Notes: generated from the letters alone by a model not told the origin. A stretch of 64,000 nt of DNA from Escherichia coli (GCF_003334405.1 NZ_QOWM01000006.1); one strand, 5' to 3'; shown: positions 56,945-64,000, counted from the stretch's first letter. Translations and numbers: made by a program.

Positions 56945-56978
56945 ATGCCCGGTGAATGAGATTCCCGGGCATTTTTTA
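56945..56978 (+). terminator. Rho-independent terminator after acnB
   Basis: gcccggtgaatgagattcccgggc followed by attttttatt. Confidence 0.8.
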
Positions 56979-57084
56979 TTTCTAAACCATCGCCGTTCCG
57001 CTGTTTTTCTCCGGTAAGGCTGCGATAATTACATCAATGGCGCAATGCGATTTCGGTGCATTGCCGGGAGCAGAGGAACACACT

Positions 57085-57447
57085 ATGGATTACGAATTTC
57101 TGCGCGATATTACCGGAGTGGTAAAGGTGCGTATGTCCATGGGGCATGAAGTGGTCGGGCACTGGTTTAATGAAGAGGTGAAAGAAAACCTGGCCTTGCT
57201 TGATGAAGTGGAACAAGCAGCGCACGCACTGAAAGGTAGCGAACGGTCCTGGCAACGGGCAGGGCATGAATACACCCTGTGGATGGACGGTGAAGAGGTG
57301 ATGGTTCGCGCCAATCAACTGGAATTCGCTGGCGATGAAATGGAAGAGGGGATGAACTACTACGACGAAGAAAGCCTGTCGCTATGCGGCGTTGAGGATT
57401 TTCTGCAGGTCGTGGCGGCTTACCGCAATTTCGTGCAGCAGAAGTAA
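57085..57447 (+). CDS. yacL: UPF0231-family protein YacL, 120 aa
   Basis: Acidic 120-aa [39 protein letters not shown]...; the track frame is 16 codons longer. Confidence 0.9.
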
Positions 57448-57453
57448 ATAAAT

Positions 57454-57479
57454 CTGGCGGAGCCTGGGAGCTCCGCCAG
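57454..57479. terminator. Hairpin between convergent yacL and speD
   Basis: ctggcggagcctgggagctccgccag, a perfect 11-bp-arm inverted repeat. Confidence 0.6.
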
Positions 57480-57484
57480 AGCCG

Positions 57485-58279
57485 TTAAACAGCTGGCATA
57501 TTGCGCCCGTAATAAATCTCGCGCATTTCTTTCCACAGCGCAGCGGTAATTTCCTGGCGCTCGCTGTCGGTTAAGTCTTCCGGTTTGGTGTGGAACATGT
57601 AGTGCTTAAGGTCGAACTCTTTAAGCAACATCTTGGTATGGAAGATATTTTCCTGATAGACGTTCACATCCACCATGTCATACAGCGCCTTCATATCGTC
57701 AGACATAAAGTTCTGAATCGAATTAATCTCATGGTCGATAAAGTGCTTCATACCGTTAATGTCGCGGGTAAAACCGCGCACGCGATAATCAATGGTTACG
57801 ATATCGGACTCAAGCTGGTGGATCAGGTAATTCAGCGCCTTCAGCGGAGAAATCACGCCGCAGGTAGAGACTTCAATATCGGCGCGGAAGGTACATAAAC
57901 CGCCTTCAGGATGACTTTCCGGGTAGGTATGTACGCAAATATGACTTTTATCAAGATGGGCAACGACCGTTTCTGGCAGTGGGCCGGGGTGTTCTGTTTT
58001 GTCGATGAGTTTCGGGTCAACCGGTTCTTCACTCACCAGAATAGTGACGCTGGCACCCTGTGGTTCGTAATCCTGGCGGGCGATGTTAAGAATATTAGCC
58101 CCGATAATGGAACAGGTTTCTGACAGGATTTCGGTCAGACGGTTGGCATTATAGAGTTCATCGATATAAGCAATATAACCGTCGCGCTCTTCGGCAGTTT
58201 TGGCGTAGCAGATATCGTAAATACAAAAACTCAGACTTTTGGTCAGATTATTAAAGCCATGCAGTTTCAGTTTTTTCAA
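57485..58279 (-). CDS. speD: S-adenosylmethionine decarboxylase proenzyme, 264 aa
   Basis: 264-aa [38 protein letters not shown]... Confidence 0.96.
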
Positions 58280-58294
58280 TTTCTTATCTTCTCC

Positions 58295-59161
58295 TTAGGA
58301 CGGCTGTGAAGCCAGTGCGTCTTGCAGATACTGAGGTAAGGCAAAAGCTGCCGTATGGATTGCCGGATTGTAATAACGGCATTTCAGGCCAGAGGCGAGA
58401 AAACGCGCCTGAATAATTTCGGTTGAGAGATGGCGTAAGGCGTCGTTATCTGTCGCCCATGCAAAAGTCATGATACCGCCGTAATAGGTCGGGATCGCCG
58501 CCTGATAAAAGCCAACGTCGCTGAAGTAATGGCTGAGTTTGCGATGGCTGTCGATGGCTTCTTCCTGCTGTAAAAAGCAGACGCCGTTTTGTGCGACGAA
58601 GATACCGCCAGGATTCAGGCAACGTTTGCAGCCTTCATAAAATGCCGAAGTGAAAAGGCTTTCGCCGGGACCGATAGGATCGGTGCAGTCGGAGATAATG
58701 ACATCAAAGGTCTGGCTGGTTTGATTAACGAAATTGACGCCATCGTCGATCACCAGCTTAAAGCGCGGATCGTCGTAGCTACCGGCGTTATGGTTGGGTA
58801 GATACTGACGGCAGAACGATACGACACCCGCATCGATTTCCACCATCGTGATTGACTCAACGTTTTTATGTCGGGTTACTTCACGCAGCATGGCACCGTC
58901 GCCGCCGCCGATAATCAGCACATGTTTCGCGTGACCATGGGCCAGTAGCGGAACATGGGTCATCATCTCATGATAGATAAACTCGTCGCGCTCGGTGGTT
59001 TGTACTACGCCATCCAGCGCCATTACGCGACCAAATGCAGCGTTCTCAAAAATGATCAGATCCTGGTGATCGGTCTTTTCATGATACAGAACGTTATCTA
59101 CCGCAAAGTACTGCCCAAACTGGTCGTGTAGCGTTTCATGCCACTGTTTTTTTTCGGCCAT
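58295..59161 (-). CDS. speE: Spermidine synthase, 288 aa
   Basis: 288-aa ORF with aminopropyltransferase motifs (IIGGGDG); upstream of speD in the same operon. Confidence 0.96.
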
Positions 59162-59266
59162 GGGTTGATACCTCCTTTGTTAACACCCGTAAAAAAAGGG
59201 CGCAACATAATAGCTAACATTGACCGCGGATGCACGGTCAATATTTCTACAAAAAGGTATCAGGGA

Positions 59267-59614
59267 TTATTTGACGTAGGCAAGCAGGCTTAAGGAATCG
59301 CGGGCCAGGGCTTTGCATTTTTTAGCGACGGGAATGCCAATGCCGCTGAGATCGCGGTAGCTGTCTTCACCGAGGGCTTTCATGTCGAAGGTGTCGTAAT
59401 TACTGAGGTCCCACTGGTTTTGCTGAGCGAAAAAGACCAGTGCGCGACGAATTTGCCCGTTAGGTAAGTTCTGGTAACCACAATCGTTCTTCAGAAAGAC
59501 AAAAACTGCCGTTAAATCGGCCATATCTTCGGCTTCAGACTCGCTGAGCGCGTAACTGTTTGCGCAGACGGCCATCAGGCTGCCGAATAACACTGTTCTG
59601 AAAAACGTCTTCAT
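59267..59614 (-). CDS. yacC: Uncharacterized periplasmic protein YacC, 115 aa
   Basis: ORF MKTFFRTVLFGSLMAVCANSYALSESEAEDMADL... with signal peptide; the track frame is 57 codons longer. Confidence 0.88.
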   Translation of the reverse strand: MKTFFRTVLFGSLMAVCANSYALSESEAEDMADLTAVFVFLKNDCGYQNLPNGQIRRALVFFAQQNQWDLSNYDTFDMKALGEDSYRDLSGIGIPVAKKCKALARDSLSLLAYVK

Positions 59615-59707
59615 TGCTTCTACCAGGGGCTTAAAGAAGATAAACGTTAGCACACTGCGAGCGAGGCGACGACCATTATTGTCGATTAAATTGTGTCTGC
59701 GGCTTGA

Positions 59708-59726
59708 CCTTCCCGTAAGGGGAAGG
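59708..59726 (+). promoter_or_regulatory. CueR (MerR-family) operator dyad within the cueO promoter
   Basis: CCTTCCCgtaaGGGGAAGG dyad between a -35 TTGACC (59704-59709) and a -10-like TATGCT (59729-59734) with 19-bp spacing typical of MerR-type promoters. Confidence 0.8.
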
Positions 59727-59779
59727 ACTATGCTCAACGTTTGATTTTGTTTCGCCTGCTTAAGAATAAGGAAATAACT

Positions 59780-61330
59780 ATGCAACGTCGTGATTTCTTA
59801 AAATATTCCGTCGCGCTGGGTGTGGCTTCGGCTTTGCCGCTGTGGAGCCGCGCAGTATTTGCGGCAGAACGCCCAACGTTACCGATCCCTGATTTGCTCA
59901 CGACCGATGCCCGTAATCGCATTCAGTTAACTATTGGCGCAGGCCAGTCCACCTTTGGCGGGAAAACTGCAACTACCTGGGGCTATAACGGCAATCTGCT
60001 GGGGCCGGCGGTGAAATTACAGCGCGGCAAAGCGGTAACGGTTGATATCTACAACCAACTGACGGAAGAGACAACGTTGCACTGGCACGGGCTGGAAGTA
60101 CCGGGTGAAGTCGACGGCGGCCCGCAGGGAATTATTCCGCCAGGTGGCAAGCGCTCGGTGACGTTGAACGTTGATCAACCTGCCGCTACCTGCTGGTTCC
60201 ATCCGCATCAGCACGGCAAAACCGGGCGACAGGTGGCGATGGGGCTGGCTGGGCTGGTGGTGATTGAAGATGACGAGATCCTGAAATTAATGCTGCCAAA
60301 ACAGTGGGGTATCGATGATGTTCCGGTGATCGTTCAGGATAAGAAATTTAGCGCCGACGGGCAGATTGATTATCAACTGGATGTGATGACCGCCGCCGTG
60401 GGCTGGTTTGGCGATACGTTGCTGACCAACGGTGCAATCTACCCGCAACACGCTGCCCCGCGTGGTTGGCTGCGCCTGCGTTTGCTCAATGGCTGTAATG
60501 CCCGTTCGCTCAATTTCGCCACCAGCGACAATCGCCCGCTGTATGTGATTGCCAGCGACGGTGGTCTGCTACCTGAACCAGTGAAGGTGAGCGAACTGCC
60601 GGTGCTGATGGGCGAGCGTTTTGAAGTGCTGGTGGAGGTTAACGATAACAAACCCTTTGACCTGGTGACGCTGCCGGTCAGCCAGATGGGGATGGCGATT
60701 GCGCCGTTTGATAAGCCTCATCCGGTAATGCGGATTCAGCCGATTGCTATTAGTGCCTCCGGTGCTTTGCCAGACACATTAAGTAGCCTGCCTGCGTTAC
60801 CTTCGCTGGAAGGGCTGACGGTACGCAAGCTGCAACTCTCTATGGACCCGATGCTCGATATGATGGGGATGCAGATGCTAATGGAGAAATATGGCGATCA
60901 GGCGATGGCCGGGATGGATCACAGCCAGATGATGGGCCATATGGGGCACGGCAATATGAATCATATGAACCACGGCGGGAAGTTCGATTTCCACCATGCC
61001 AACAAAATCAACGGTCAGGCGTTTGATATGAACAAGCCGATGTTTGCGGCGGCGAAAGGGCAATACGAACGTTGGGTTATCTCTGGCGTGGGCGACATGA
61101 TGCTGCATCCGTTCCATATCCACGGCACGCAGTTCCGTATCTTGTCAGAAAATGGCAAACCGCCAGCGGCTCATCGCGCGGGCTGGAAAGATACCGTTAA
61201 GGTAGAAGGTAATGTCAGCGAAGTGCTGGTGAAGTTTAATCACGATGCACCGAAAGAACATGCTTATATGGCGCACTGCCATCTGCTGGAGCATGAAGAT
61301 ACGGGGATGATGTTAGGGTTTACGGTATAA
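59780..61330 (+). CDS. cueO: Multicopper oxidase CueO (Tat-exported), 516 aa
   Basis: [31 protein letters not shown]... (twin-arginine signal), copper-site motifs [13 protein letters not shown] and a Met-rich insert encoded at about 60842-60978; the track frame is 13 codons longer. Confidence 0.96.
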
Positions 61331-61395
61331 AAAGACCGTATTCGGAAATATGCCCGGATCTCTCCGGGCATTAAACTGATGACAAACGCAAATCT

Positions 61396-61425
61396 GCCTG
61401 ATGCGCTACGCTTATCAGGCCTACG
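61396..61425. repeat. REP element
   Basis: gcctgatgcgctacgcttatcaggcctacg. Confidence 0.8.
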
Positions 61426-61459
61426 CTAGCTGTGCAATCCATTGATTTTGCACAATTTT

Positions 61460-61500
61460 GTAGGCTGGATAAGGCGTTCACGCCGCATCCGGCATGAACA
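61460..61500. repeat. REP element
   Basis: gtaggctggataaggcgttcacgccgcatccggcatgaaca. Confidence 0.8.
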
Positions 61501-61531
61501 ACGCGCACGTTGTCAGCAATCTGAGCAAGTC

Positions 61532-63922
61532 TTACTTCACATCATCCGGCAGCGCATAAGCCACAATATAGTCGCCCATCTTCGTACCAAATGAACCGTG
61601 ACCGCCTGCGGAGATCACCACATACTGCTTACCATTCACTTCATAGGTCATTGGCGTAGCCTGACCACCCGCTGGTAAACGACCCTGCCACAGTTTTTCA
61701 CCGTTGCTCATGTTGTAAGCGCGCAGGTAGTTATCTGCCGTAGCGGCGATAAACAGCACGTTACCCGCCGTGGAGATTGGCCCGCCCAGCATCGGCATAC
61801 CCATATTGAACGGCACCGGAACCGGCATCGGGAACGGCATACTGTCCTGCGGCGTACCAATACGTTTCTTCCACACCACTTCATTAGTTTTCAGATCCAG
61901 CGCCGAGATATAACCCCATGCTGGCTGTTTACATGGCAGACCAAATGGTGAGAGGAACGGGTTGAGCGTGACACCATACGGTACACCGTACTGTGGCTGA
62001 ATGCCGGATTCCGTACCCGTGCCTTTGGCATCTTTCGGCTGCTCCATCGGGTTGCCAGGACCACGCGGGATCAGTTTCGAAACAAACGGCAGTGCCATTG
62101 GGTTGGCAATCGCCACTTCACGATTTGGATCAACGGAAATCCCGCCCCATTCGAACATCCCCAGGTTACCCGGGAAGACCAGCGTACCCTGTTCAGATGG
62201 CGGGGTGAAAATGCCTTCATAGCGCATCTGGTGGAACATCACGCGGCACACCAGTTGGTCAAACATGGTGGCTCCCCACATATCCGCACCGCTCAAATCT
62301 TTCGTCGGACGGAAGCTCAGTTCAGAAAACGGTTGAGTTGGGGTTACGTAATCGCCTTTCGCTGCACCTTGGGGAACCGGTTTTTCCGGTGCCGGAACCA
62401 CCAGTTCGCCATTACGACGATCGAGCACAAAAATGTTGCCGGTTTTCGCCGGAGCGTAAATAACTGGCACTTTCTGACCATTAACGGTGATGTCCGCCAG
62501 CGTCGGCTGTGCCGGAAGATCCATGTCCCACAGGTCGTGGTGAACGGTCTGGTAGCTCCACGCCAGTTTCCCGGTAGTGGCATTCAGCGCCAGAATCGAG
62601 CTGGCATAACGTTCCTGTTCCGGTGTGCGGTTACCGCCCCAGATATCCGGCGTGGTCACGCCCATCGGCAGATAGACCAGATCCAGCTTCGCGTCATAGG
62701 CCGCTGGTGCCCAGGAGTTTGGCGAGTTAAAGGTAAAGGTGTGTTCGTCAGACGGGATTGCGTTCGGATCTTTCGCGCCGGGATCAAAAGCCCACAGCAG
62801 CTCCCCGGTGTTGACATCAAAACCACGGATCACGCCAGACGTTTCGCGGGTTGAGAAGTTATCGGTAACTGAACCGGCCATCACGATGGTTTTATCGGTG
62901 ATAATCGGTGGCGAAGTCGGTTCATACAGACCCGGTTTGGTGTCTGGCATATTGCTTTGCAGATTGAGCACGCCTTTATTGGCGAAGGTTTCGCACAGTT
63001 TGCCGTTTTCAGCGTTAATCGCAATCAGTCGACCATCATTGACCGGAAGAATGATACGACGCGGGCAATCCGCCATCACTTCCGGCGAAGCGGTTTCTGC
63101 TTTGGCTTCATGATAAGAGACACCACGGCAGGTTACGTGCTGGAAAGACTCGTTGGTTTTCAGCTCAGGATCGTAATGCCATTTCTCTTTGCCGCTGGCG
63201 GCATCAAGCGCAAACAGGCGCTGGTGAGCGGTACACAGGTAAAGGGTGTCGCCCACTTTAATCGGCGTCACTTCATTGGTGATTTCACCCGGATCGTTCG
63301 GCTGCTTCACATCGCCAGTACGGAACACCCAGGCTTCTTTCAGATTATGGACGTTATCGGCGTTAATTTGTTTCAGCGGCGAAAAGCGTTGACCTTCCTG
63401 ATTACGACCATAGGCAGGCCAGTCCTGATCGGCTACGGGGGAGATAGCTTCAGCAGGTGTGGCATCGGCGCTTAAGGTGCCGTTGATCTCCTGCGGATCG
63501 TTAAATCCGGCCCAGGTCAGGATACCACCGCTAATCAGCAGTGCGACCACCAGTGCGGCAACTGCGCCGCTGGCAGGAATGACCAGGCGACGCCAGACAA
63601 ACGGCAGGATCAGCCAGATGCCGAAGAAGACCAGAATGTCGCTGCGCGGAGTCAGCGCCCAGAAGTCGAAACCAACTTCCCAGACGCCCCAAATCATGGT
63701 GCCGAGCAGCAGGGCTGCGTATAGCCAAAGCGCGGCGCGTTTACTGCGCCACAGCATCCAGGCGACGCCGAGCATCACAAGGCCAGCGATAGGGTAGTAC
63801 CAGGAGCCGCCAATCGCGACCAGCCAGCCTCCGCCAATGAGTAGATACAGCCCGCAAAGCGCTGCAAAAAGGGCTGTTAGCGTGACGAGTAATCGTCGCG
63901 AGCCTGTATTGTTAATTGCCAT
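61532..63922 (-). CDS. gcd: PQQ-dependent membrane glucose dehydrogenase, 796 aa
   Basis: ORF MAINNTGSRRLLVTLTALFAALCGLYLLIGGG... with N-terminal TM segments and PQQ beta-propeller domain; an alternative in-frame ATG lies 6 codons upstream at 63940. Confidence 0.93.
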   Translation of the reverse strand: MAINNTGSRRLLVTLTALFAALCGLYLLIGGGWLVAIGGSWYYPIAGLVMLGVAWMLWRSKRAALWLYAALLLGTMIWGVWEVGFDFWALTPRSDILVFFGIWLILPFVWRRLVIPASGAVAALVVALLISGGILTWAGFNDPQEINGTLSADATPAEAISPVADQDWPAYGRNQEGQRFSPLKQINADNVHNLKEAWVFRTGDVKQPNDPGEITNEVTPIKVGDTLYLCTAHQRLFALDAASGKEKWHYDPELKTNESFQHVTCRGVSYHEAKAETASPEVMADCPRRIILPVNDGRLIAINAENGKLCETFANKGVLNLQSNMPDTKPGLYEPTSPPIITDKTIVMAGSVTDNFSTRETSGVIRGFDVNTGELLWAFDPGAKDPNAIPSDEHTFTFNSPNSWAPAAYDAKLDLVYLPMGVTTPDIWGGNRTPEQERYASSILALNATTGKLAWSYQTVHHDLWDMDLPAQPTLADITVNGQKVPVIYAPAKTGNIFVLDRRNGELVVPAPEKPVPQGAAKGDYVTPTQPFSELSFRPTKDLSGADMWGATMFDQLVCRVMFHQMRYEGIFTPPSEQGTLVFPGNLGMFEWGGISVDPNREVAIANPMALPFVSKLIPRGPGNPMEQPKDAKGTGTESGIQPQYGVPYGVTLNPFLSPFGLPCKQPAWGYISALDLKTNEVVWKKRIGTPQDSMPFPMPVPVPFNMGMPMLGGPISTAGNVLFIAATADNYLRAYNMSNGEKLWQGRLPAGGQATPMTYEVNGKQYVVISAGGHGSFGTKMGDYIVAYALPDDVK

Positions 63923-64000
63923 AAAGAGACACCATTTCAATTCATTAATATTTTAGTAGCAATTAATTATAGGTTTTAACATGTGTGATCGTCATCACAA

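Follow-up and report, generated by a model that had tools for sequence, protein, structure and literature searches.

The cueO locus in the 64,000-nucleotide stretch of Escherichia coli DNA analysed here (the window) almost certainly comprises a CueR-dependent, MerR-type sigma-70 promoter that precedes the gene for CueO, a multicopper oxidase with a methionine-rich insert. Both the promoter switch and the insert are real and already known, the locus being a standard example both of MerR-type activation through DNA distortion and of copper detoxification in the periplasm, and current knowledge is left unchanged; the value of the locus is as a positive control, in which a true regulatory architecture and a functional insert were recognised from the sequence by itself. 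No observation made here speaks against the CueR–cueO reading. The assignment to CueR is based on a match to the published consensus, on a register shared with the copA promoter and on conservation among orthologues. The architecture of the site, its uniqueness and its conservation are established here, whereas CueR binding and Cu(I) activation of cueO are adopted from the literature, in which copA and cueO are reported to be under CueR control from promoters with 19-bp spacers that become bent (PMC8169799, PMC1526738) and a PcueO-lacZ fusion serves as a CueR reporter (PMC9396075).

The DNA of the cueO region is that of E. coli K-12 MG1655, where cueO is annotated as b0123, and the gene order acnB-yacL-speD-speE-yacC-cueO-gcd is common to the window and MG1655. 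From yacL to gcd, past a difference in a T-run near 56972, the two sequences show 0 mismatches over 6904 nt, and within the cueO coordinates they do not differ. The T-run (about 56972–56978, in the acnB–yacL intergenic region; 6 T in the window vs 7 in MG1655, NC_000913.3) is the sole difference in the 7.3 kb compared and lies far outside cueO; it reflects either a K-12-like strain that departs from the MG1655 reference or a homopolymer sequencing difference. The published PcueO (yacK, b0123; a member of the CueR regulon) is the same locus, with the CueR box, spacer and hexamers described below (PMC1526738, PMC8169799), and the judgement of the original prediction that the region is well explained by known biology is borne out by this identity and by the agreement of the literature. 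A match to the region is present in 5426 of 5426 complete E. coli genomes, and at least 80% of the region is present in 5425 of them. The gene for the regulator, cueR (b0487), adjoins copA in MG1655, ∼375 kb from cueO, and would fall outside the window. The features of the promoter and its flanking genes are as follows.

59267–59614, minus strand: yacC, divergent from cueO with its start at 59614, encoding a pilotin-like lipoprotein
59704–59709, plus strand: −35 hexamer TTGACC, identical to TTGACA at 5 of 6 positions
59708–59726, no strand: predicted CueR operator CCTTCCC-gtaag-GGGAAGG, a perfect inverted repeat centred on 59717
59710–59728, plus strand: 19-bp spacer, counted from the sequence, 2 bp above the optimum
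59729–59734, plus strand: −10 hexamer TATGCT, read from the sequence
59769–59774, plus strand: putative Shine-Dalgarno-like element AAGGAA, 5 nt before the ATG
59780–61330, plus strand: cueO coding sequence, 516 aa plus stop with an ATG start, multicopper (cuprous) oxidase

The promoter block of cueO is the 31-nt TTGACCTTCCCGTAAGGGGAAGGACTATGCT at 59704–59734, from which transcription would start near 59741, ∼7 nt past the −10 hexamer. A repeat finder places the dyad arms at 59708–59714 and 59720–59726 (7 nt each, 100% complementary, 5 nt apart), so that the dyad shares 2 bp with the −35 hexamer. The original prediction had set a dyad between the two hexamers of a promoter with a 19-bp spacer; the hexamers and the spacer length hold as described, whereas the dyad does not lie wholly between the hexamers, and the inverted repeat, although real, is divided 7-5-7 in its symmetric form rather than the 7-4-8 that the capitals of that prediction implied. 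A standard sigma-70 scan of 59200–61600, covering spacers of 16–18 nt only, called no promoter; this result is expected because a 19-bp spacer falls outside the limits of the scan, and it does not constitute counter-evidence. Translation is assigned to the ATG at 59780 on the basis of the annotation, a twin-arginine (Tat) motif at residues 3–8, and the alignment of the whole protein with the NCBIfam model and with PDB chains; a longer open reading frame from a TTG at 59741, present in a mechanical ORF list, is an artefact.

The CueR core CCTTCC-N7-GGAAGG, given by Yamamoto and Ishihama in 2005 and quoted in PMC8169799, is contained exactly in the dyad and is the sole match in the 64 kb, where 0.06 matches are expected at up to one mismatch; a longer, 8-5-8 consensus, ACCTTCCC-(5)-TGGAAGGT, is given in PMC1526738. 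Shuffling the 64-kb window 100 times with its dinucleotide composition preserved never produced the exact dyad pattern, and the composite of promoter and dyad, at up to three mismatches, has a chance expectation of 0.01. A weight matrix was built from 43 distinct cueO promoters with Escherichia excluded, the published CueR consensus and the E. coli copA site serving as references independent of the matrix. With this matrix the window site attains 42.6 bits where the background is −72 ± 15, and the next best non-overlapping match in the window is at −3.8 bits, a gap of more than 45 bits; with a matrix confined to the dyad, the site scores 30.5 bits and the runner-up 12.6. The CueR motif scan suggested by the original prediction, for which a score no higher than background would have spoken against CueR, thus places both the unique core match and the top matrix score at the cueO site. 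The same cueO-derived matrix also finds the CueR site of copA, at 34.7 bits (34.7–35.0 in the promoter comparison) vs −13.9, as the only strong match in the 6.5-kb copA–cueR locus.

The copA promoter of MG1655, which reads TTGACCTTCCCCTTGCTGGAAGGTTTAACCT, resembles that of cueO in its TTGACC hexamer, its 19-bp spacer, its CCTTCC/GGAAGG arms at equal offsets and the reach of its dyad over the −35 hexamer. The two differ in that the copA dyad is 6-7-6 (with a C/T mismatch at the seventh pair) whereas that of cueO is a perfect 7-5-7, in the −10 hexamer (TAACCT in copA, TATGCT in cueO), and in the central 7 bp (CCTTGCT in copA, CGTAAGG in cueO). Promoters throughout the MerR family have a long spacer and a palindrome at its centre (PMC1526738; see also PMC8113463), and on this ground the dyad might be taken for the operator of another member, such as ZntR, SoxR or a GolS-like gold sensor. 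The half-sites make such a regulator unlikely, as they are specific to CueR: the arms correspond exactly to the CueR core, in the same register as in the copA operator. The operator-promoter of MerR in Tn21 (mer), the archetype of activation by spacer distortion, likewise has a 19-bp spacer whose hexamers flank a palindrome, and it is activated through DNA under-twisting (PMC1526738, PMC8169799), but its regulator and the metal sensed are other than those of cueO, and its half-sites, which conform to the proteobacterial MerR consensus TCCGTAC-N4-GTACGGA (7-4-7), are unrelated to the cueO arms (PMC1526738). With cueO moreover given to CueR in the literature (PMC8169799, PMC9396075), we consider another MerR-family regulator extremely improbable.

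The conservation of the promoter was assessed in one genome per species, giving 80 cueO orthologues at 74–98% protein identity. In 79 of the 80 Enterobacteriaceae species loci both hexamers, their 19-bp separation and the dyad are kept, which together with the copA register upholds the MerR-family-type arrangement that the original prediction had claimed. Among the 79 conserved loci the −35 hexamer is TTGACC in 77 and TTGACG in 2, the −10 hexamer conforms to TA[T/A]GCT apart from one TAGGCT and one TATCCT, and the block sits 33–45 nt upstream of the ATG. In the site-anchored comparison, the 31-bp block averages 1.5–2.0 bits per position vs 0.56–0.64 in the flanking 40–50 nt, with means of 1.97 bits per position for the −35 hexamer and 1.80 for the −10 hexamer. 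Many orthologues carry GGAGGG instead of GGAAGG in the right arm, a substitution for which the left arm does not compensate, and across genera the bases at the seventh arm position often do not pair, so that only the 6-7-6 core is clearly constrained. That neither this core nor the 19-bp spacing varies to any real extent among Enterobacteriaceae is a modest added detail. The one exception, Intestinirhabdus alba (locus L076, 2240–2500), shows neither a CueR-like box nor a 19-bp-spacer promoter within 260–300 nt upstream of cueO, where the DNA is GC-rich and unrelated, and its regulation may have been lost or moved.

These data also bear on an alternative in which the palindrome arose by chance or serves as a hairpin, for instance a terminator or an RNA structure in the transcript of the divergent yacC, and cueO is transcribed from an ordinary promoter. 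As single-stranded DNA the dyad region folds at −7.4 kcal/mol (z = −2.4), and yacC does diverge from the same 165-bp intergenic region. The stem, however, is not followed by a T-run on either strand, the terminator scan calls none there, no Rfam family was found in 57000–64000, and the promoter scan leaves the region without a promoter of 16–18-nt spacing; the terminator or RNA-structure reading was rejected on the absence of a call at the site, on the 0 Rfam matches and on a hairpin stability that is only moderate. Furthermore, the conserved block extends beyond the stem alone to span the hexamers at their fixed 19-bp spacing, and the uncompensated GGAGGG right arm fits a protein-binding site better than a base-paired stem. 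The probability that the palindrome is such a hairpin is in our estimation close to nil, and the dyad is read as the CueR operator.

Structures of CueR bound to DNA, by crystallography and cryo-EM, have been solved on PcopA only, and we infer from the identical architecture of the two promoters that the DNA-distortion mechanism extends to PcueO. By this mechanism, the 19 bp between the hexamers would leave them 2 bp too far apart and wrongly phased for RNA polymerase. A CueR dimer would bind CCTTCCC-N5-GGGAAGG, filling the spacer on the face of the DNA opposite the polymerase, and without Cu(I) would keep the promoter in an inactive shape. On binding Cu(I), Ag(I) or Au(I), CueR would kink and under-twist the spacer so that the hexamers realign and transcription starts, in accord with the reported bending and under-twisting of the spacer by Cu(I)-CueR, through which sigma-70 engages both hexamers (PMC8169799, PMC1526738).

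The product of the neighbouring yacC scores 196.8 bits with the NCBIfam model for YacC family pilotin-like proteins and has a weaker match to the model for GspS, the pilot lipoprotein of type II secretion; a 172-aa extension of yacC across the cueO promoter in the mechanical ORF list is an artefact. A moderately conserved TTAAAT block at 59686–59691, 13–18 bp upstream of the cueO −35 hexamer, retains about 1.1–1.5 bits per position when the loci are compared anchored and without gaps, and could be an A/T tract resembling an UP element or a part of the divergent yacC promoter. The locus was called the yacC–yacK divergon in an older comparative-genomics paper (PMC1526738), and the symmetric CueR operator and the TTAAAT block might place yacC under copper control as one half of a yacC–cueO CueR divergon, a proposal that we regard as highly unlikely. 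In HB101 (locus L083, 522–1289), an IS1 of 768 bp has inserted, and the 9 bp duplicated at its target cover the yacC start codon; the insertion point corresponds to 59612–59620 in the window, the cueO −35 hexamer lying 84 bp downstream, and the element could alter yacC expression and possibly also the upstream promoter context. Other strains carry insertions of the IS621 or ISVsa5 families within 59400–61500.

The product of the gene is identified as CueO by the NCBIfam equivalog model NF008205 (multicopper oxidase CueO), which matches residues 1–516 at 982.9 bits (cut-off 525). The Pfam domains found are TAT_signal, Cu-oxidase_3 (PF07732), Cu-oxidase (PF00394) and Cu-oxidase_2 (PF07731), and the PDB chains of E. 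coli CueO, including 1KV7, 3OD3 and 3NT0, align end to end with residues 1–516, the crystallised mature chain starting at residue 29 (1kv7). The E. coli paralogue FtsP (SufI) and the multicopper oxidase of Thermus thermophilus belong to the same three-cupredoxin-domain fold family but are without the ∼50-residue Met-rich insert, and the FtsP model scores CueO at 297 bits, below its cut-off of 581. The features of the protein are as follows, all in the coding sequence of the plus strand.

59780–59863, plus strand: Tat signal peptide, residues 1–28, with RRDFLK at 3–8 and Pfam TAT_signal at 1–20
60080–60091, plus strand: copper-ligand motif HWHG, residues 101–104
60200–60208, plus strand: copper-ligand motif HPH, residues 141–143
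60842–60910, plus strand: conserved helical half of the Met-rich segment, residues 355–377, with a mean top-residue frequency of 0.88
60848–60997, plus strand: insert relative to oxidases without it, residues about 357–406, from homologue alignments
60911–60979, plus strand: variable Met/His/Gly-rich tail, residues 378–400, where most orthologue gaps fall
61106–61126, plus strand: copper-ligand motif HPFHIHG, residues 443–449, with the Cu5 ligands D439 and M441 just upstream
61274–61312, plus strand: motif of the type-1 and trinuclear sites, residues 499–511, carrying the type-1 Cys

The cuprous oxidase activity of CueO and its role in copper tolerance are attributed to the window protein from literature on an identical protein. 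CueO would be exported in folded form through the Tat pathway and would oxidise Cu(I) in the periplasm to the less toxic Cu(II), with electrons passing from the Cu5 site (M355, D360, D439 and M441) by way of the type-1 copper to the trinuclear centre. The Met-rich insert (about 355–406) would lie over the type-1 site, its conserved helix providing Cu5 ligands and keeping out bulky phenolics, and the variable Met/His/Gly tail would capture Cu(I) transiently. The four Cu5 ligands are present in the window protein and do not vary in any of 81 sequences.

The Met-rich peptide spans residues 355–400 (60842–60979) and contains 14 Met in 46 residues, compared with 3.2% Met elsewhere in CueO (binomial P = 1e-10). 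The original prediction had given the peptide and its start exactly and had ended the segment 1 nt short, at 60978. Alignment to homologues, which that prediction had proposed for delimiting the insert, locates it where it had been put but a few residues longer, to about H406. The limits of about 357–406 follow from the positions at which the alignments break: the chain of the engineered deletion 2YXV aligns over 29–356 and then from 407, in agreement with the limits given here, and those of the Thermus enzyme, FtsP/SufI and bilirubin oxidases stop at 342–357 and resume at about 409–410. The alignment of 81 orthologues has 104 gapped columns, of which 100 are at residues 361–400, 83 of these at 381–400. 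The 355–406 segment ranges from 25 to 82 aa across species, whereas the remaining protein is steady at 463–465 aa; the segment reaches 82 aa in Enterobacteriaceae vs 52 aa in E. coli, and longer Met-rich tails are described for Hafnia alvei CueO (8R4F/8R4H) and many Enterobacteriaceae (PMC12041951). The length variation of CueO thus resides almost entirely in the Met/His/Gly tail, in keeping with current work that treats Met-rich domains as modules for the tunable recruitment of Cu(I). A tandem repeat at the DNA level under the Met-rich tail was looked for in E. coli and not found. At the short extreme, the 489-aa CueO of Trabulsiella odontotermitis (L082) has a Met-rich segment of only 25 aa, with most of the helix and tail absent, and constitutes a natural near-deletion of the insert.

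The insert is described as a helix and a disordered loop that blocks bulky phenolic substrates, the helix containing the Cu5 ligands M355 and D360 and the Cu6/Cu7 methionines (PMC11494321). In agreement with a mainly steric gate over the type-1 copper, as opposed to a copper-handling module, this site is covered by the conserved helix in solved structures, and phenol and ABTS oxidase activity rises roughly ten-fold or more once the insert is deleted (PMC11494321). The insert nevertheless supplies D360 to Cu5 and helps to recruit Cu(I) from strongly chelated forms, whereas its deletion abolishes neither cuprous oxidation nor resistance in vivo (PMC11494321). The invariance of M355 and D360 likewise argues against a lid alone, and the composition of the Met/His/Gly tail is kept while its length varies over 25–82 aa, which suggests selection for a metal-binding composition and not for a fixed lid shape. 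A predominantly steric role is in our view unlikely, and the term substrate-gating loop, used in the original prediction, is apt for the phenolic block and only partial as a description of an insert that also contributes a Cu5 ligand and recruits chelated Cu(I).

Downstream of cueO, a 7-bp GC-rich hairpin, GCCCGGA-tctc-TCCGGGC (61352–61369), begins 22 nt past the stop codon, with no T-run after it. Two REP-like palindromic units in opposite orientation (61396–61424 and 61460–61494) follow between cueO and gcd, and a 2.1-kb query returned a median of 28 matches per E. coli genome, consistent with a dispersed repeat.
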